Assembly: GCA_964106645.2 (NCBI GenBank)
Contig: CAXKZF020000232.1
Direction: 5' to 3' (one strand)
Length of the DNA stretch: 64,000 nt
DNA from: Podarcis pityusensis
Lineage: Eukaryota
The translations under genes were made by a program, and so were the position numbers. A model generated the notes under the pieces. The model was not told the origin of the DNA, searched no databases, and worked only from the letters and a program-made list of their open reading frames with translations. The number at the start of each line of letters is the position of its first letter. Position 1 is the first letter of the stretch. Of this stretch, positions 8,644-61,613 are shown piece after piece.

Positions 8644-9023
8644 TGGAGAAGTACGAAGCACTGAGGTTGGCCCGGACGTACTGGGAAATGGAGGGCAGGG
8701 GCGACACCGCTCAGTACGCCCTCCTCCTGGCACGGACAGGCATCTTCACCCACATGGAACTGTCTGCCATCTGTGACATCACCCCCTACGTTGCCCGCAA
8801 GGTGACGCAGGGGGTGGACCTCCCTCGCTACAGGTTCGGGGAGAAGTTCGATCCGCGGACGATCGACTCCATGCTGGTACTGCTAGAGCACTACCAGGCG
8901 TGGGGCAACCTGCCACGAGGGGTGCTGGACCTCATCCTGCCGTACACCAGCCTGACCGTAGTAAGCCGAATGACAGGGATTGGAGTGAGTGACCTTGCGA
9001 ATCCTGAACTTGTACAGTCTTGA
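8643..9023 (+). CDS. putative HTH DNA-binding protein
   Basis: Two HTH-like segments (ELSAICDIT, VVSRMTGIG). Confidence 0.55.
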   Translation: MEKYEALRLARTYWEMEGRGDTAQYALLLARTGIFTHMELSAICDITPYVARKVTQGVDLPRYRFGEKFDPRTIDSMLVLLEHYQAWGNLPRGVLDLILPYTSLTVVSRMTGIGVSDLANPELVQS

Positions 9024-10431
9024 GTCTCCGACCCCTCGGCAGCTTGACGCTATCGGCAGCATGCTCCGTGCCTATGAGAAGTCGCGCGGCGTAGACATCA
9101 AGGTTGTCGCTGAGAAGTGGGGACGTGGTAAGGTGCTGTGCCTCGGTCAAGCACCTGAGGGTGTGTGGTACGGGCAGGAGTTCCAGGTCACCTACTCCCC
9201 CAAGCAGTTCGAGTCCAAGGCGAACGCGGCTACCGTGTTCGACTCGGCGCTCGACAACTACTTCGGCAACGTCAGCGGTCTGCCGAACAACGCGAACGTC
9301 TCGCAGTTCTGGTACGCGGAGCACTTCGAGCGCAACTTCATGCAGAGGATCGACCCCACCCAGCCGGTGGCTGTGGACGTGGAGACTGGCGGCGTGCTGG
9401 GTGAGACTGTCACCTCACGCACAGCGCCGATGATCACCATTGCGTTCGCGCAGGGTCCGAACGCTGTCGTGCTCAAGGTGTGGGACGACCAGGAGGATTG
9501 GGAGGAAGATTCCTCCGAGGTGGAGCGCCGCAAGACGAACCAGGTGTTCCTTGTGAACTTCCTGCCGCTCATCGAGAAGCCGATCTTCCACAACGGCAAG
9601 TTCGACATCCAGGTGATCGAGTCCAACACAGGCGTTAGGATGCCTAACTGGTTCGACACGATGCTGGCTCATCACGCATTGAACCACGCCGCTCGGGAGC
9701 ACGGACTCAAGGTACTGTGCAAGCGGTACTTCGATGCCGATGACTGGGAGGCCGGGATCAAGGAGTGGATCAAGGGTAACGTCAAGGACTACAACAAGAT
9801 CCCGAAGACACACCTGGCGAACTACAACGGCTACGATGTGCTGTGGACGTACCGCCTGTGGCAGATGCTGGCACCGATGATCGAAGCAGACGAGGCGGCT
9901 CAGGCTGCACTGTTCTTCGAAATGCAGGTGGCTGACTTCCTCTCCGACGTGGAGGCTGTCGGCATCCCGTTCTCTCAGTCGCAGGGCAACTACCTGCAAG
10001 CGATCTACGCACACCAGGCCGACGAGGCTCTAGCAAAGCTGCGAGCCCTGGTCAAGGACAAGGGGTTCAACCCTGGCTCCCCACAGCAGGTCAAGAAGTG
10101 GCTAGAGGGACAGCTTGGATACCCTATCGCCTCCACTAAGGAGGAGGCGATCGACATTATCAAGGGCGAGGCACGGAACCCTGACGTGGTGACGTTCTGC
10201 AACCTGCTCATCGAGTACCGCAAGGCAAAGAAGATGATGAGCACGTACCTGCATGCTTGGGAAGATGCGTCTCGGATCGAGGGGGATGCGCGGGTCCACC
10301 CGACGTTCCACGTACACGGCACGACTACTGGTAGACTGTCTAGTAGCGATCCTAACGCGCAGAATGTACCCCGAGACAAGACGATCAGGAAAATGGTGAC
10401 CCTCGATGACCGAAACCAACTCAAGCTTTAG
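8989..10431 (+). CDS. polA: DNA polymerase I, N-terminal part (3'-5' exonuclease + thumb)
   Basis: ExoI VAVDVETG, ExoII HNGKFD, ExoIII YNGYD, TTTGRLSSSDPNAQNVP. Confidence 0.9.
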   Translation: MTLRILNLYSLESPTPRQLDAIGSMLRAYEKSRGVDIKVVAEKWGRGKVLCLGQAPEGVWYGQEFQVTYSPKQFESKANAATVFDSALDNYFGNVSGLPNNANVSQFWYAEHFERNFMQRIDPTQPVAVDVETGGVLGETVTSRTAPMITIAFAQGPNAVVLKVWDDQEDWEEDSSEVERRKTNQVFLVNFLPLIEKPIFHNGKFDIQVIESNTGVRMPNWFDTMLAHHALNHAAREHGLKVLCKRYFDADDWEAGIKEWIKGNVKDYNKIPKTHLANYNGYDVLWTYRLWQMLAPMIEADEAAQAALFFEMQVADFLSDVEAVGIPFSQSQGNYLQAIYAHQADEALAKLRALVKDKGFNPGSPQQVKKWLEGQLGYPIASTKEEAIDIIKGEARNPDVVTFCNLLIEYRKAKKMMSTYLHAWEDASRIEGDARVHPTFHVHGTTTGRLSSSDPNAQNVPRDKTIRKMVTLDDRNQLKL

Positions 10432-10630
10432 GTACGTAGAGTACCGCGGCGACGATGCGGCAGACGTCCTCGTGACACTGCTGATGAACCTCCGCCACGC
10501 AGATGCTGAGGGCGAGCGTGAGGTTCACGACGGCGGCTCAGAGACAGCACGACACGCAGAGCCCGAACGAATCGTTGGGTTCCAGCCCAACCCGGAGGAG
10601 GAACATGACGAACGTCATCCTGAACGTTGA
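10406..10630 (+). CDS. small acidic protein between the two polA halves
   Basis: 74-aa ORF overlapping both polA ORFs. Confidence 0.5.
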   Translation: MTETNSSFRYVEYRGDDAADVLVTLLMNLRHADAEGEREVHDGGSETARHAEPERIVGFQPNPEEEHDERHPER

Positions 10631-11360
10631 CCTGTCACAGGCAGAGCTCCGCGCGATGGCTCTGCTGTCCAACGATGAGTGGATGATCGGTGCCCTGCAA
10701 GAGGGTACGGGTGACTTCTTCTCGAACCACATGATGCCCGTGTGCTTCCCACAGCACCTCGTCAACTTCGGCACGATGGAGGCGTTCGCTGAGCAGGAGC
10801 CCGTCCTGTTCAAGGAGGAGCGCACCAAGGTCAAGGGTGTCCAGTACGGGCTGGCGTTCGGACGCACGGCACCAGCGATCGGCAAGGCGCTGGGCATGAG
10901 CACGGCTGAGGCCAAGACCATCATCAGCAACTACTTCGCCACGGCACCGAACTTCGCACAGTGGCGCGAGGATGTGAAGGCTGCTGCTATCGACCAGAGC
11001 AAGCGGGACCTCCTCGTGTCACCTACGGGCCGCAGGTTCCAGTCGGAAATGGTCACGACGAAGAACATGCATGCGATCCAGCGAGAGGCGCTGTCGTTCC
11101 TGCCTCAGTCCTCGTCGTCTGACATTTGCCTCATGTCTGCGATGCTCCTGCACCAGGAGATCCGGGCAAACAAAATCCCCTTCCGCATCTTCAACGTCGT
11201 TCACGACGCGATCATGCTGGAAGGGGACGAGGCTTACGCCGCGATGGTAGGGGAACTAACGGGGTCGATCATGCGGGAAGTCGGTGCGAAGATGATGGGC
11301 GATGCCGTGCCATTCCTCAGCGACTACAGCTTCGGGCCTAGCTGGTCTGATCTCTCCTAG
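10605..11360 (+). CDS. polA: DNA polymerase I, C-terminal part (palm/fingers)
   Basis: Motif A DLSQAELR, motif B RTKVKGVQYGLAFG, motif C VHDA; own GGAGGAGG RBS. Confidence 0.9.
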   Translation: MTNVILNVDLSQAELRAMALLSNDEWMIGALQEGTGDFFSNHMMPVCFPQHLVNFGTMEAFAEQEPVLFKEERTKVKGVQYGLAFGRTAPAIGKALGMSTAEAKTIISNYFATAPNFAQWREDVKAAAIDQSKRDLLVSPTGRRFQSEMVTTKNMHAIQREALSFLPQSSSSDICLMSAMLLHQEIRANKIPFRIFNVVHDAIMLEGDEAYAAMVGELTGSIMREVGAKMMGDAVPFLSDYSFGPSWSDLS

Positions 11361-11571: not shown

Positions 11572-11600
11572 TTGCGTTTCCGTGCAACATGTGCTATGAT
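11572..11600 (+). promoter_or_regulatory. promoter of tRNA block 1 leader
   Basis: TTGCGT-17nt-TATGAT, extended TG, ATG 6 nt downstream (leaderless). Confidence 0.75.
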
Positions 11601-11606
11601 AGACAC

Positions 11607-11678
11607 ATGACGCACTACGAAGTCCGAATGCACGCCGCCCTCCCGGCGTACTTCGACGTGCGTCTACACTCATGGTGA
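11607..11678 (+). CDS. attenuator leader peptide 1 (MTHYEVRMHAALPAYFDVRLHSW)
   Basis: Leaderless mini-ORF; codons match block-1 tRNAs; last codons complementary to the terminator 5' arm. Confidence 0.75.
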   Translation: MTHYEVRMHAALPAYFDVRLHSW

Positions 11679-11694
11679 CCTCCTAACAGAGAAG

Positions 11695-11731
11695 ATCCCC
11701 TGAGTGCTTGACACTCGGGGGATTTTCTGTT
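11695..11731 (+). terminator. terminator/attenuator before tRNA block 1
   Basis: ATCCCCTGAGTG-CTTGA-CACTCGGGGGAT stem followed by TTTCTGTT. Confidence 0.8.
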
Positions 11732-11748
11732 AGTATGTTCATCTACTA

Positions 11749-11821
11749 GGGTCATTAGCTCCAACGGTAGAGCGCCTGTTTTGCAAGCAGGATGTTGTCG
11801 GTTCGAATCCGACATGATCCA
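11749..11821 (+). tRNA. tRNA-Ala(TGC)
   Basis: Full cloverleaf, G3:U70. Confidence 0.95.
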
Positions 11822-11822
11822 C

Positions 11823-11898
11823 TGCGGTGTAGGGGAGTTCGGTTGTCCCCGCCAGTCTCATAATCTGGAGATCGTGGGTTCAAATCCCACCACCGTAA
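11823..11898 (+). tRNA. tRNA-Met(CAT)
   Basis: Cloverleaf, loop CTCATAA. Confidence 0.9.
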
Positions 11899-11923
11899 CG
11901 GTATAACTCAATAGTGATACTAT

Positions 11924-11995
11924 CCGAATGTACGCAAGTGGTATGCGGCGAAGTTTGGGACTTCGAAGTCAGAGGTTCGACCCCTCTCATTCGGA
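11924..11995 (+). tRNA. tRNA-Pro(TGG)
   Basis: Cloverleaf. Confidence 0.9.
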
Positions 11996-11997
11996 CT

Positions 11998-12074
11998 GTG
12001 ACTGTGACGGAGCGGCCTAACGTCGCTGATTGTGGATCAGTAGTTCGTGGGTTCGAATCCCACCAGTCACCCCA
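11998..12074 (+). tRNA. tRNA-His(GTG)
   Basis: Cloverleaf, C73, encoded CCA. Confidence 0.9.
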
Positions 12075-12075
12075 T

Positions 12076-12147
12076 GTGTTTGAAGCTAAACGGTTCAGCG
12101 CTCGGTTGTCAGCCGAGAGATAGCGGGTTCAACTCCCGTCAGACACG
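12076..12147 (+). tRNA. tRNA-Asp(GTC)
   Basis: Cloverleaf, G73. Confidence 0.9.
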
Positions 12148-12197
12148 CATAGTCCCCGGCCTGAGAGTGACACCAAGCACTTACTCCGGGGGCGTCC

Positions 12198-12270
12198 GGT
12201 CCATTAGAGTAGCGGTAATCTCGTCTGATTCTCAGTCAGAAGATCACGGGTTCGAATCCCGTATGGACTA
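12198..12270 (+). tRNA. tRNA-Glu(CTC)
   Basis: Cloverleaf. Confidence 0.92.
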
Positions 12271-12405
12271 CGGTGAGACTATAGGTACCTAGCAGACTTG
12301 TAGCATCACTACACAACTGAATAGTCGGCGTCGTAGTACCTTCCATATTCAACCGAAGACAAGGTAGAGTGTTGTGCAAGGGCCGCGAGGATCACGCCGA
12401 CGTTA

Positions 12406-12478
12406 GGCTCGTTAGAATAGCGGTCAGTTCCCCAGGCTTTCAACTTGGATGGCACCGGTTCGAATCCGGTACGAGTCA
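12406..12478 (+). tRNA. tRNA-Glu(TTC)
   Basis: Cloverleaf. Confidence 0.92.
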
Positions 12479-12479
12479 C

Positions 12480-12560
12480 GGTTCGCATGGCACAAGGTGT
12501 GCTCGCTGGTTGTAACCCAGTCGCCTTCGGGCATGGGGAGTTCGATTCTCTCGCGGACCA
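12480..12560 (+). tRNA. tRNA-Tyr(GTA)
   Basis: Cloverleaf with long variable arm. Confidence 0.85.
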
Positions 12561-12614
12561 CTTGTGTGGGATTCCATTCACACAGCCCTGTACGCTGGTA
12601 CGTGCAGGGCACCC

Positions 12615-12687
12615 GCCTCGCAAGCTCAGTTGGAAGAGCGCCGGATTGAAACCCCGGAGGTTGCCAGTTCGACTCTGGCGCTTGGCA
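12615..12687 (+). tRNA. tRNA-Phe(GAA)
   Basis: Cloverleaf; two acceptor-stem mismatches. Confidence 0.8.
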
Positions 12688-12707
12688 CTCCAAACGAAGG
12701 AGGAAGC

Positions 12708-12803
12708 ATGAATACACTTTGGTGCTGGTTCACCGGGGGACATCGTAAGGTCTACGACTTTGGGTATCCGGTCTGTTCCAAGTGTGGCATCCTACTTCGG
12801 TAG
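12708..12803 (+). CDS. small Cys/His-containing peptide
   Basis: AAGGAGG RBS; C...GH...CSKC. Confidence 0.6.
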   Translation: MNTLWCWFTGGHRKVYDFGYPVCSKCGILLR

Positions 12804-12814
12804 GAGGTGATGAA

Positions 12815-12895
12815 ATGACACGGTGGGACTGGGGAAGATTCTTCTTTGGGGTTGCCCTGTGGTGTGTATACGCTGCGGCGTCCATCGCCTACTAG
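12815..12895 (+). CDS. small membrane peptide
   Basis: AGGAGGT RBS; hydrophobic, 26 aa. Confidence 0.5.
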   Translation: MTRWDWGRFFFGVALWCVYAAASIAY

Positions 12896-12969
12896 CACGA
12901 GTGGCCCAACTGGTAGAGGCACCCTCTCAAACGGGGTTCAGCGTGTGGGTTCGAAGCCCACCTCGTGTA
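12895..12969 (+). tRNA. tRNA-Leu(CAA)
   Basis: Cloverleaf, short variable region. Confidence 0.8.
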
Positions 12970-13022
12970 CAACACAGGGTTGTGACCCACCACTCGGAAG
13001 GCTCCACCGTGACGGAGCACAT

Positions 13023-13096
13023 GCCTCTCTATCCCAACTGGTAGAGGAAGCAGGCTTAGACCCTGTACAGTGAGAGTTCGAATCTCTCGGGAGGCA
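13023..13096 (+). tRNA. tRNA-Leu(TAG)
   Basis: Cloverleaf, short variable region. Confidence 0.88.
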
Positions 13097-13104
13097 CAAT
13101 CAAG

Positions 13105-13133
13105 TTGACATCGAGCAGAGAGTGTGCTATAGT
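13105..13133 (+). promoter_or_regulatory. promoter of tRNA block 2 leader
   Basis: TTGACA-17nt-TATAGT, extended TG, ATG 6 nt downstream. Confidence 0.85.
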
Positions 13134-13139
13134 ATAACT

Positions 13140-13205
13140 ATGAACACGGTAACAGGAACCAAGCAGTCGGGCAATATCGTCCGTCTCCTCGGGGTGCCGT
13201 CGTAA
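13140..13205 (+). CDS. attenuator leader peptide 2 (MNTVTGTKQSGNIVRLLGVPS)
   Basis: Leaderless mini-ORF; codons match block-2 tRNAs; GGGGTG complementary to the terminator 5' arm. Confidence 0.78.
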   Translation: MNTVTGTKQSGNIVRLLGVPS

Positions 13206-13224
13206 AGCAATCTAAGCTCTACCC

Positions 13225-13258
13225 ACCCCACGATCTTCGGATGGTGGGGTTTTTACTT
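13225..13258 (+). terminator. terminator/attenuator before tRNA block 2
   Basis: ACCCCACGATC-TTCG-GATGGTGGGGT followed by TTTTACTT. Confidence 0.85.
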
Positions 13259-13351
13259 GGATGGATAACCCGAGCGAGGACTATCGGGCGCTGTCTTGAA
13301 AACAGTTGGCGATTGCATCGCGTAGGAGTTCGAGCCTCCTTCCATCCGCCA
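13259..13351 (+). tRNA. tRNA-Ser(TGA)
   Basis: Cloverleaf, long variable arm, GCCA end. Confidence 0.9.
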
Positions 13352-13374
13352 CACAACTCAATAGTGATACTAAT

Positions 13375-13459
13375 GGAATCGTGACAGAGCGGCAATGTGT
13401 CGGCTTGCTAAGCCGTAGCCTACCTCACGGTAGCGAAGGTTCGACCCCTTCCGATTCCG
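13375..13459 (+). tRNA. tRNA-Ser(GCT)
   Basis: Cloverleaf, long variable arm. Confidence 0.9.
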
Positions 13460-13578
13460 CACAGGAGGCTCGCATACTAGTTCGCACCCGACTTCAACCG
13501 ACTTGGGGAAGAGACAGGGTGGCTGGCGGTCCCAATACAGGTTCCCTCTCAGACCTGGCTCCGAAAAGAGAGGGGTAC

Positions 13579-13651
13579 GGATTGTTAGCTCAGTTGGTAG
13601 AGCAAGCGCCTCTTAAGCGTTAGGTCCTGGGTTCGAGCCCCAGACGATCCA
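13579..13651 (+). tRNA. tRNA-Lys(CTT)
   Basis: Cloverleaf. Confidence 0.95.
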
Positions 13652-13716
13652 CAGACTCAGACAGCCTAGGTTACAGTTCTGAGCGCCAGCGGAGGTTCGC
13701 CTCGTGGCTGGCATCC

Positions 13717-13790
13717 GGGTTACTGATGTTCAACGGTTAGCATGGCTGTCTTCCAAACAGCTCGTGGGGGTTCGAATCCCCCGTAGCCCT
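13717..13790 (+). tRNA. tRNA-Gly(TCC)
   Basis: Cloverleaf, U73. Confidence 0.88.
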
Positions 13791-13791
13791 C

Positions 13792-13864
13792 GCCCTTATA
13801 GCTCCAACGGTAGAGCAGCGATCTTGTAAATCGATGGTTGGGAGTTCGAATCTCTCTAGGGGCA
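13792..13864 (+). tRNA. tRNA-Thr(TGT)
   Basis: Cloverleaf. Confidence 0.92.
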
Positions 13865-13865
13865 C

Positions 13866-14249
13866 ATGGCAGGATACTACGAGCGGCACCCGCCCGAGGC
13901 GTGGGCCACAGCACTACAAGCACTCAAGGAGCAGAGGGGTTATGGCGAAGCATCAAGGCGATCAGGCATCAGCACTCGTGGAATTAGCAAAAGGTATCCG
14001 GGTATGGGTCTCCCGAGCGGTAGACGATATCCTGATAGCGTACGCGCTGACGCACAGAGACTACTTGACGATCGCGTCTCGTATCGAGAGGTACAGGCTA
14101 CGCTAGGTATCTCCCGCCACACAGTCCGTGACTGGTTCCCTGGTCGTGGCTGGACAGCACAGGAGGGTGGACAGTTCAAGTCCATGCTCCACTACAACTC
14201 AACAGTGACACTCAAGATGTGGGACAACAACCGCCGCAATCGCGGTTAG
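13866..14249 (+). CDS. tandem HTH DNA-binding protein
   Basis: Two HTH-like repeats (YGEASRRSGIS, SYREVQATLGISRHTV). Confidence 0.7.
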   Translation: MAGYYERHPPEAWATALQALKEQRGYGEASRRSGISTRGISKRYPGMGLPSGRRYPDSVRADAQRLLDDRVSYREVQATLGISRHTVRDWFPGRGWTAQEGGQFKSMLHYNSTVTLKMWDNNRRNRG

Positions 14250-14259
14250 GGTCCCTAAT

Positions 14260-14332
14260 GGATGATTAGCTCAGAGGCCAGAGCAGTTGGCTTACACCCA
14301 ATCGGTCGGGGGTTCGACTCCCTCATCATCCA
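14260..14332 (+). tRNA. tRNA-Val(TAC)
   Basis: Cloverleaf. Confidence 0.92.
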
Positions 14333-14334
14333 CG

Positions 14335-14501
14335 AGGTAGGTTTCCTCACACTCAAACACTTGCCAGCGCACCGGGCTTTTACCCCGGAGAGCGGGGACG
14401 CTATAGCTTCAATGGAAGAAGTGCCCGCCGATACGCGGGAGGTTGCTGGTTCGAGTCCAGCTAGCGGGAACACAGGAACTTGTGCAAGTGAGCACCTACC
14501 T
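14335..14501 (+). ncRNA. putative structured RNA with embedded Ile(GAT)-like tRNA domain (14397-14469)
   Basis: Outer stems AGGTAGGT/ACCTACCT and CACTTGC/GCAAGTG enclose a tRNA-like fold with a 6-nt anticodon loop. Confidence 0.55.
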
Positions 14502-14509
14502 ATACACTT

Positions 14510-14581
14510 TCCCCCATAGCTCAGCGGCAGAGCAGAGAGCTGTTAACTCTAAGGCCCCTGGTTCGATCCCAGGTGGGGGAG
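14510..14581 (+). tRNA. tRNA-Asn(GTT)
   Basis: Cloverleaf. Confidence 0.95.
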
Positions 14582-14582
14582 C

Positions 14583-14795
14583 GCGCGGAGTGCGAACTCC
14601 AAACACGATGAAGGGTCGCGCTATAATTAGCGACTAGGGTCGGTGCCACGGGGGTGCCGTGGAGTGCTGACCTCACAATAGCAGCGTCGCGGCTGCCGTG
14701 TAGCATCGTAGGGTTGGCCTCCTACGGGGTTGCTCGTCTGGAGATTCGATACCAGATGTTGGTGTGATTCGAACTTGCGGCACTCGGTTCCGCGC
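14583..14795 (+). ncRNA. putative ~213-nt structured ncRNA
   Basis: Ends pair (GCGCGGAGT/GTTCCGCGC); several internal hairpins; bounded by tRNAs. Confidence 0.5.
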
Positions 14796-14799
14796 ACAA

Positions 14800-14875
14800 G
14801 CCTTCGTATCAGCTCTGGCTACGAACCAGTTGAAACTGTAACGGACACATGGGAGTTCGAATCTCTCCGGGGGCA
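14800..14875 (+). tRNA. atypical tRNA-Arg(ACG) lacking a normal D-arm
   Basis: Acceptor stem, anticodon arm CTGG-CTACGAA-CCAG and canonical T-arm; 21-nt variable region. Confidence 0.65.
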
Positions 14876-14879
14876 CCCT

Positions 14880-14950
14880 TGCCCGTTAGTGTAACGGTAA
14901 CACGCCTGGTTCTGGCCCAGGTACTCTTGGTTCGAATCCAGGATGGGCAG
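14880..14950 (+). tRNA. tRNA-Gln(CTG)
   Basis: Cloverleaf. Confidence 0.93.
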
Positions 14951-14954
14951 CGAT

Positions 14955-15028
14955 GGTGAGGTGGCTGAATGGCTAGGCGCGTGGCTGCAACCCTCGACAT
15001 GCCGGTTCGACCCCGGTCCTCACCTCCA
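14955..15028 (+). tRNA. tRNA-Cys(GCA)
   Basis: Cloverleaf, U73, CCA. Confidence 0.9.
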
Positions 15029-15029
15029 C

Positions 15030-15098
15030 CCCGCCAGCATGGAGCACGAGGGTGTTCTAAGCCCGGTAGTGAGGGTTCGATTCCTTCTGGCGGGACCA
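15030..15098 (+). tRNA. atypical tRNA-Arg(TCT) with reduced D-arm
   Basis: CCCGCCA/TGGCGGG acceptor, ACCA end, T-arm, GGGT-GTTCTAA-GCCC. Confidence 0.55.
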
Positions 15099-15099
15099 A

Positions 15100-15174
15100 G
15101 GGTTATTAGCTCAGCGGTAGAGCGCTATCCTGATAAGATAGAAGTCCGGGGTTCAACTCCCTGATAACCCACCA
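15100..15174 (+). tRNA. tRNA-Ile(GAT)
   Basis: Cloverleaf, CCA. Confidence 0.95.
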
Positions 15175-16738: not shown

Positions 16739-17001
16739 GCACCATCTATGGGATCAACGCCAACCAACTCACCATCCCCACCAGTCCCCCGCAGGACCCA
16801 CGCATCAACGTAGCATACGCGGAGATCACACAACTCCAGAGGCAGGTGAGTAACCTGGAGTTGACCAAGATCAGCCACGCCTCGCAGATCCAGGCACTCC
16901 AGGGTCAGCTCCTCGAAGAGATCAATCAGCGCCGGGAACTCCAACGTCTCGTGGAGGATCTGGTCAAGGACCTCACCGCAGGTGTTGACACGGAGGACTA
17001 G
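16735..17001 (+). CDS. coiled-coil hypothetical protein
   Basis: Coupled ORF, GAGGAG RBS. Confidence 0.65.
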   Translation: MSTIYGINANQLTIPTSPPQDPRINVAYAEITQLQRQVSNLELTKISHASQIQALQGQLLEEINQRRELQRLVEDLVKDLTAGVDTED

Positions 17002-17103
17002 TATGTGCTATACTGGTCTTGCAACACAAGAGGGACCTAGCGCCTACGACCAGCTAGTCACAGTCTGACAAACTACTGTCCAGGGGGCTTCGGCCCCCTG
17101 TCT

Positions 17104-17175
17104 GCATCCTTGGTGTAACGGTAACACAGCAGCTTCCAAACCTGCCAGTTCTGGGTTCGAATCCTAGAGGATGTG
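17104..17175 (+). tRNA. tRNA-Trp(CCA)
   Basis: Cloverleaf, G73; promoter TTGACA-18-TATACT at 16985. Confidence 0.88.
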
Positions 17176-17213
17176 CGCCATCCCGACAAGGACGCGCTAC
17201 TGCGCAGGCAACA

Positions 17214-60534: not shown

Positions 60535-61613
60535 TGCTCTCCCATGACTACACAGACCTGCTGGAAGCAGCCCGTCCCTCGTTCGGCCCCCGCATCTACG
60601 TCAAGTACGTGGGTGAGTACACCGAGACGCAGACAGCAGTGAGGACCGGCAACCCGACCCACTACTGCTATGAGGACAAGGTGTACAGCTCGATGGGCAC
60701 CGCCCGGAATGCGTGCACCAAGTACCTCAACTACCGCGACGACACGATGGATGTGCACGCATTCTTCTACGTGTGGAACGCAGAGGATGAGTTCTGGCAG
60801 CTCGATTCGTACGTAGCCAAGGGCACCAAGGCTGACGACCTCCCCTGGCGCAAGAAGAAGACCAAGTAGTTAGGAGCCCTAATGCAGGTCAAGCTCACAG
60901 GCGACTCTTGGCCTGCATGGCTCAAGGGTCACACGCTCAAAGTGGTTCACAAGCGAGACCACTGGTATGTCACTAGGGATAACGGCGACCACCGCTTCAA
61001 TGGGTGGAACGTAGAGACCGGAAGCGACCGTTCCGGCTTCGGTGGTGTGTTTGTGGAAGAGGACTCACCCCCGCCGAAGAAGGTCGGCTCCCCCGCCAAG
61101 ATCATCGCGATCAAGTCTGCGATCGGTCGCGGTCTCGAAGACGACACCGACCCCGCAGAAATCCTGAACACCATCCTCGACATCCTCGACAGTTAGGAGC
61201 CCTAATGGGTTACACCACAGCGCAGATCAAGGGGCTCCTGCTCTCGGCAGCGAGCCTCGCCGCAGACCTCCAGGGTCTCGGTGAAGAGGAGACCAAGGCT
61301 CAACTTCTCCAGGTTGAAGCGGAGTTCGATGTGTGGTACGATAGGCTCTCGACCGGTCACCGGATGGAGGACTACTACGGCAACACCGTGGCCCTTGCCA
61401 AGGGTGACAGGATCAAGCTCCTGGGCTATGACTGGGACGACGCGTACCTCAAGGACCTATGCGGTGGGCAAGGCACGATCCACACGATCACGGACTTCGA
61501 TACCGACACGGACCCACTGTTCAAAGACAAGCTAGGCGACCACCGCTACGCATGTCGAGGCGAGAACAACAGCCGAGGCTTTGTCAAGGTGAACGAGGAC
61601 GACGAGGAGGAAG

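Follow-up and report, generated by a model that had tools for sequence, protein, structure and literature searches.

Why phages carry tRNA genes is a long-open question, in which codon bias is set against insurance against the loss of host tRNA. The window analysed here, a stretch of 64,000 nt deposited in the Podarcis pityusensis assembly GCA_964106645.2 (contig CAXKZF020000232.1), is a circular phage genome of ~60.3 kb (the open reading frame (ORF) at 671 recurs at 61004). It raises the question in a specific form, for its tRNA genes stand in two blocks, each headed by a promoter, a short ORF and a terminator. Do ribosomes reading the short ORFs decide whether the tRNAs are made? On the basis of sequence and predicted RNA folding we consider it likely that the tRNA blocks are under ribosome-mediated transcription attenuation, in which the leader of each block would be a checklist of the codons which that block decodes.

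Block 1 (11749–13097) comprises 11 tRNA genes by ARAGORN and Rfam, specific for Ala, Met, Pro, His, Asp, Glu (two), Tyr, Phe and Leu (two). Block 2 (13259–15174) has 10 solid tRNA genes, Ser-UGA, Ser-GCU, Lys, Gly, Thr, Val, Asn, Gln, Cys and Ile, plus some weak or degenerate elements described below. These genes and all parts of the two control units are on the + strand. The amino-acid sets of the two blocks do not overlap; a first-pass annotation of this DNA had noted this, and the ARAGORN and Rfam calls bear it out.

The same layout of promoter, leaderless ORF and U-tailed terminator heads each block, as the first-pass annotation had also proposed. Starting upstream of block 1, the promoter P1 (11572–11600; TTGCGT-17-TATGAT, with TG before the −10 box) matches the consensus at 8 of 12 positions by eye; it is under the threshold of the consensus scan, which does not list it. 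Its −10 box, with an ATG 6–7 nt downstream, is kept in all 10 aligned units. The leaderless ORF that follows (11607–11678) encodes 23 amino acids, MTHYEVRMHAALPAYFDVRLHSW, and its coding part folds as a long hairpin (11609–11664). Terminator 1 (11696–11730) has a core stem at 11696–11722 and the tail UUUUCUGU; the extended hairpin (11684–11732) has a predicted stability of −29.7 kcal/mol with a z-score of −7.7. The last leader codons (11667–11678) can pair with the 5′ arm of this terminator (11696–11706) as antiterminator 1 (11667–11706). Block 2 is preceded by a promoter with an 11 of 12 match (13105–13133; TTGACA-17-TATAGT), a leaderless ORF of 21 amino acids (13140–13205), MNTVTGTKQSGNIVRLLGVPS, and terminator 2 (13226–13254) with its stem at 13226–13249 and a UUUUU tail. 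In antiterminator 2 (13191–13229), GGGGUG in the tail codons of the leader (13191–13196) pairs with CACCCC (13224–13229). Both leader ATGs are located 6 nt 3′ of a TANNNT box, at the predicted start of transcription, and both terminators have a U-rich tail. Competing helices, with the terminator 5′ arm paired to the last leader codons, are thus predicted in both units, in agreement with the earlier proposal.

The leaders are distinguished by their content. Leader 1 contains all nine of the block-1 amino acids, and leader 2 contains nine of the 10 of block 2, with Cys absent. Own-block codons make up 15 of 22 in leader 1 and 17 of 20 in leader 2 (together 32 of 42), and the longest own-block runs are 10 and 14, respectively. 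An exact test was made over all 92,378 splits of 19 amino acids into sets of nine and 10. The observed codon total is reached by 23 splits (exact p 2.5e-4) and the observed runs by three (exact p 3e-5). Among segments of the same length taken from the phage's own proteins, the count, run or coverage singly is reached by 28–367, and all three together by none (0 of 9,879 and 0 of 9,923). The statement that the sensor segments consist almost wholly of own-block amino acids is upheld by both the partition test and this control. The same numbers bear on chance, i.e. that the match was selected with hindsight from features as common as short ORFs and hairpins. A loose rule does pick out 13 short ORFs as candidates in the 60-kb genome; set beside the exact probabilities, the empty protein control and the recurrence of the unit at 29 heads in three phage groups, coincidence becomes an extremely improbable explanation.

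The recurrence was established in relatives. Uncultured phages with the same tRNA order were reached via a polymerase search, and the Microbacterium phages Magritte, Pumpernickel, Big4, Cece and L129 via tRNA matches; other relatives are given here by their L numbers. Leaders were found with a fixed rule (TANNNT box, short spacer, ATG), the search region being shifted upstream for L020 block 1 and Big4 block 2. Copies of the same phage (L008, L009, L102, L104, L010, L011, L025 and L109) were left out before counting, and the unit statistics refer to 27 units, 14 of block 1 and 13 of block 2; Cece was added afterwards and is outside the 27. A search ahead of the tRNA arrays of relatives was a check suggested at first pass, and when run it found the unit to be conserved, at 15 of 19 heads of block 1 and at all 14 of block 2, cultured Microbacterium phages included. 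One of the four block-1 heads that lack a leader, that of L023, is cut by the end of its contig. The leader ORF has 13–23 codons and an ATG 6–7 nt after the TANNNT box in all 27 units. Every non-Met amino acid of the block is present in 13 of 14 block-1 leaders, and each of the 13 block-2 leaders contains nine or more of the 9–10 amino acids of its block. Positions 4–12 of the block-2 leaders are own-block in 13 of 13; the core of the leaders is nearly pure, and amino acids from outside the block are often found in the first 2–3 codons and in the final few. Only 3–11 residues are in common with the leaders of the window, the order being shuffled and the composition kept, and therefore selection acts on content.

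The content also follows the tRNA genes when these differ between phages, which was the second check suggested. Leader 1 has 2–4 Ala residues wherever tRNA-Ala is in block 1 (10 of 10), and 0, 0, 0 and 1 where it is not. Where block 2 includes tRNA-Trp, as in three of the analysed phages and in Cece, Trp is found in the leader-2 core every time, and it is in none of the 10 other cores; in leader 2 of L024 it is located in the tail, not the core. In Magritte tRNA-Ala is in block 2, and Ala is in the core of leader 2. Leader codons and tRNA content therefore co-vary for Ala and Trp, if over few independent events.

A strong hairpin lies downstream of the leader stop in 27 of 27 units. Switching was simulated by modelling the ribosome footprint as unpaired bases, and sequestration of the terminator 5′ arm was compared between a mid-leader stall and the stop codon. 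The arm is predicted to be more sequestered at the mid-leader stall in 26 of 27 units. When terminators are swapped between units, the cognate one is above the mean of the foreign ones in 24 of 27, and at the mid-leader stall the window's own terminators rank 1 of 27 (block 1) and 3 of 27 (block 2). The Escherichia coli thrL, trpL and ilvL attenuators give the same stall profile when run through the same pipeline. In the equilibrium fold of the complete unit the terminator wins almost everywhere, as it does in thrL, trpL and ilvL. Its win was considered as an objection to attenuation and dropped, the E. coli attenuators behaving alike; as the terminator wins once fully made, control must be kinetic.

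From this anatomy we infer translation of the leaders, ribosome stalling, readthrough and feedback, in the following sequence. A ribosome would start on the leaderless leader mRNA. With all tRNAs available it would reach the tail or stop codon and cover the antiterminator arm, so that the terminator forms and transcription stops. Where a tRNA of the block is scarce the ribosome would wait in the core, leaving the tail free to pair with the nascent terminator arm. Polymerase would then read into the block that supplies the missing tRNA, closing a feedback loop.

Block 1 of the window has a further element. A promoter-like site, P2 (11708–11736, TTGACA-17-TAGTAT), lies inside terminator 1; it has a 10 of 12 consensus match, better than P1, and its predicted start, at ~11743, is ~6 nt before tRNA-Ala and downstream of the switch. 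A P2-type site occurs in all 10 block-1 units of the window's phage family, that of the window included. Eight of 13 block-2 units, the window's among them, have no promoter-like site after the stop, and in the window the consensus scan finds no promoter inside terminator 2. The first-pass annotation had replacement tRNAs transcribed 'only when' a matching host tRNA is cleaved or uncharged; this is too strong, since P2, conserved in 10 of 10, would bypass the switch. With a consensus promoter inside its terminator, block 1 is probably not strictly gated by the attenuator but raised by it. If active, P2 would give block 1 an unconditional basal level that the attenuator only raises, while block 2 of the window would have no such bypass. 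A speculative reason for P2 is that a leader unable to start cannot report the loss of the block-1 tRNA-Met(CAU), which we take to be initiator-like. In L014 the two terminators (11788–11827 and 14167–14211) are near copies, with TTGACA and −10 boxes kept only in the block-1 copy.

The position of P2 suggests another point of control. Leader and termination might act mainly on P2, by transcriptional interference or re-initiation, so that promoter competition rather than readthrough would be regulated. In the 10 block-1 units of the family the loop of the terminator contains the −35 box, and the spacer of P2 contains the U-tail. Of the 14 block-1 units 13 retain TTGACA/T in the hairpin, among them three that have no −10 box at 16–19 nt. 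Such competition is inapplicable to the eight block-2 units without P2 and leaves the cognate antiterminator pairing unexplained, and we give it little credence.

Several observations weigh against attenuation. Block 1 might be largely uncoupled from the switch by P2, and P2-like sites are present in 5 of 13 block-2 units. Three block-1 heads with sufficient DNA (L096, L024 and L111) have promoters and no leader. Together with the retention of P2 in the family and the equilibrium win of the full terminator in most units, these points would fit short ORFs that are simply small genes with their own terminators, the tRNAs being made constitutively from promoters in or after the hairpins without attenuation. 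On that account it would be hard to see why the peptides conserve composition rather than sequence and track tRNA content, why cognate pairing exceeds foreign in 24 of 27 units, or how the majority of block-2 units would be transcribed with no promoter-like site after the stop; the equilibrium result, being shared with thrL, trpL and ilvL, does not help it. We regard constitutive expression as improbable. The remaining points concern the strength of the evidence for attenuation. The U-tails are poor in both units of L014 and in block 2 of L022, and the predicted switch is weak (delta ≤0.07) in block 1 of L014 and L022 and block 2 of L013, L122 and L129; the delta of the window's block 1, 0.33, ranks just 12 of 27. 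The block-1 leader of L100 (L100:3407) mixes both blocks, with 7 of 16 codons own-block; its array perhaps has one leader for the whole, and the contig ends in block 1. Block content is only assumed from the family for seven truncated contigs or units (L015, L095, L100, L101, L107, L108 and block 2 of L019). The co-variation of Ala and Trp represents two or three independent events only, and the units are related by descent, so that pooled p-values overstate the evidence. Lastly, 12 of the 15 own-block codons of leader 1 are matched by the phage's own anticodons, where 11.9 are expected from genome usage; for leader 2 the values are 14 of 17 and 10.9, and overall this matching gives no clear signal. 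Attenuation, with its anatomy, its block-matched checklist leaders, their conservation and co-variation, is nevertheless the reading of the first-pass annotation that the analysis supports.

If the blocks are attenuated, what would stall the ribosome? The choice of synonymous codons is informative here. Among repeated residues in the leaders, 183 of 211 possible decoding classes are covered, against 144–163 expected under three null models. In leader 2 of the window Thr, Val and Gly are each encoded by three different codon classes, and all nine leaders with two Glu residues use one GAA and one GAG. The spread over codon classes is greater than given by genome codon usage (p 0.009 for the window alone, p <2e-4 for 12 less related units); compared with uniform usage it is not significant (p 0.07 and 0.09, respectively), which tells against the checklist. 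We take this spread as moderate support for a checklist of tRNA species. The genes controlled are those of tRNAs, and the codons stand singly and are varied, which is why loss of individual tRNA species is somewhat favoured as the signal over amino-acid starvation. Such loss could arise by cleavage by a host defence nuclease or by decay during infection, and the available text of one study reports that tRNA cleavage stalls ribosomes at cognate codons (PMC13096801).

The same attenuators might instead sense uncharged tRNA in amino-acid starvation, or generally slow translation, which would differ in the signal only. As is generally known, a stalled ribosome cannot distinguish a cut from an uncharged tRNA, and the lack of significance against uniform codon usage in the reduced sets is consistent with such a sensor. 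In mycobacteria the amino-acid content of an upstream ORF (uORF) decides which shortage gives readthrough, and the whiB7 uORF of M. smegmatis, with 19 amino acids, senses many shortages, in the portion of the report available (10.1101/2023.06.02.543512). A general sensor would need no block-specific content, yet the leaders split the code as the blocks do and follow the tRNA genes when these move. Their codons are single rather than in tandem runs (22 identical neighbours among 460), and extra tRNA would presumably not cure a lack of amino acid. A starvation signal is rather unlikely, and loss of tRNA species is preferred.

The other features of the tRNA region are as follows. The Ser-UGA gene of block 2 forms a clean cloverleaf, yet is not called by ARAGORN (default or -ps90). 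Three elements of this block are doubtful: an Ile-like element in the Val–Asn gap (14397–14472) with a 6-nt anticodon loop, an Arg-ACG-like element in the Asn–Gln gap (~14800–14878) with no D-arm by eye and no ARAGORN or Rfam call there, and a weak Arg-UCU (15027–15098) found by ARAGORN at -ps90 and scoring 21.6 bits in Rfam. The gene list of the first-pass annotation stands for block 1; in block 2 three of its genes, one Ile and both Arg, are doubtful. Block 2 is interrupted by a helix-turn-helix ORF (13866–14249). A tRNA-Trp gene (17104–17176, + strand) lies outside both blocks with its own promoter-like site (16985–17014) and no leaderless ORF ahead. The motif AACT[CG]AA[TC]A is repeated at 11905, 12313, 13353 and 14194; within the window it is confined to the tRNA region, and it precedes tRNAs in relatives too. 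We take it to resemble the boxA antitermination sites of rRNA operons.

The phage genes of the window include those for a helicase, primase, portal, terminase and tail proteins. A family-A DNA polymerase is split over two ORFs (8989–10431 and 10605–11360); the C-terminal piece of ~250 amino acids (10605–11360) has many relatives of the same length, in searches that did not cover longer forms. We infer that the host is an actinobacterium, because the tRNA order is common to Microbacterium phages and the starts are leaderless. No cultured phage covers 80% of the tRNA-block region, and bacterial genome contigs searched with the phage polymerase contain no relative; the tRNA-block stretch is ≥99% identical in 16 records. 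None of the sequencing data sets listed as containing it is of RNA; of four runs compared, all as contigs, X1 has the stretch with no difference and may be the source of the window, and X2 has pieces of a close relative.

Other arrays were also inspected. Five actinophage arrays in which the tRNAs do not follow this sorted order (Gilson, PegLeg, Forza, Gamgam and Alone3) have no block-matched leaderless leader by eye, under a rule that misses leaders with a ribosome-binding site. In L018 the array is small and different, and no leader precedes it. In Gordonia phage Forza (L125:3194) a strong promoter-like site and a leaderless ORF of 14 codons stand ahead of a Ro-like gene and the tRNA array. 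Four large Microbacterium phages (L128:1698, L122:19351, L129:18726 and L134:17649) have a third leaderless ORF of 21–23 codons, followed in three of the four by a hairpin of ~−20 kcal/mol at 3 nt after the stop. It precedes a gene of 239 amino acids (no Pfam match, two tested) and Met, Ile and Cys tRNAs, to which its content has no clear match. A small ORF with an end motif Asp-Pro-Met-Asp...Cys-x-x-Cys-Gln lies just 5′ of the block-1 promoter in L020 (11598–11672) and also in L096, L100 and L108; it is not seen at the corresponding place in the window. In L020 the tRNA-Ala gene is apparently split by an inserted ORF, HNH endonuclease-like by eye (11838–12290).

In the T4-like Stenotrophomonas phage Moby an ORF of 27 codons precedes both an annotated terminator and a tRNA block that covers 15 amino-acid types. 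Block codons account for 24 of its 26, the longest run being 18, and 14 of the 15 types are represented (p 0.010 and 0.004). The switch predicted for it is less clean, and the candidate, which was picked by eye, is suggestive only as a further case of a checklist leader. A promoter-like site (L130:5616–5645, by eye) follows the first two tRNAs of the leader-headed block and is a possible bypass like P2. There is perhaps an even chance that several phage lineages, from 60-kb actinophages and Microbacterium jumbo phages to the Moby candidate, have sorted their tRNA genes into blocks that each answer to a checklist at isoacceptor resolution, with RNA alone sensing host immunity against tRNAs and turning on the matching antidote. 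If true, this would explain the isotype ordering of phage tRNA arrays. A sensor of this kind, raising the output of a tRNA block upon slow decoding of its own codons, would speak for insurance as the reason why phages carry tRNAs, and makes the question testable by single-codon changes. The unit is present and unannotated in the cultured Microbacterium phages Pumpernickel, Big4, Cece and Magritte, which can be grown in laboratory strains, so that this can be done without isolating another phage. A further use of the leaders may be as compact reporters of tRNA cleavage.

How does the element compare with known systems? The Rfam leader and T-box families give no match in the window at the gathering score, where only tRNAs are matched; His_leader scores 31 bits, on the opposite strand and with a cut-off of 49. 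A full-text literature search, with most subscription papers outside its reach, found no account of tRNA genes being attenuated through a leader peptide. In actinobacteria the whiB7/wblC uORF attenuator, as far as the available part of its description goes, likewise has diverse uORF content that sets which shortages antiterminate (10.1101/2023.06.02.543512); it differs in being one broad sensor before a transcription factor, with no partition of the code and no tRNA output. The polycysteine attenuators of mycobacteria share the use of a leaderless short ORF as a ribosome-based sensor in actinobacteria, according to the accessible text (10.1101/834739). The trn operon of Anabaena is a spare long tRNA array turned on under translational stress (PMC8421152, PMC10272220, both available in part), and in this respect is similar; it is controlled at the promoter by a protein repressor, TrcR, with a direct-repeat operator and the entire array responding at once, and 'attenuat', 'leader' and 'uORF' do not occur in the available text of PMC8421152. 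Phage T5's tRNA-Lys that counters the anticodon-nuclease defence PARIS has the same likely purpose of replacing a cleaved host tRNA; in the part of the paper available no sensing or conditional expression is seen, and 'attenuat' does not occur (PMC11464382). A close likeness is to the multivalent leader-peptide attenuators thrL and ilvL of E. coli, and to trpL, which have a short leader ORF, control codons upstream of the segment that pairs with the terminator arm, an intrinsic terminator 24–43 nt after the stop and the same simulated stall profile. The phage units have each of the corresponding features by computation, namely the ORF at the head, the matching control codons (L100 excepted), the terminator and the mutually exclusive antiterminator. 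So far as sequence can tell, the phage element works like a classical leader-peptide attenuator, and it is a real and conserved one. The E. coli attenuators regulate the synthesis of amino acids and rely on runs of one to three residues, whereas the phage-borne units are leaderless and list 7–10 amino acids nearly once each, often with different synonymous codons. The phage units are new in that their output is tRNA, in that the leader is a checklist and in that the genetic code is partitioned between the two.

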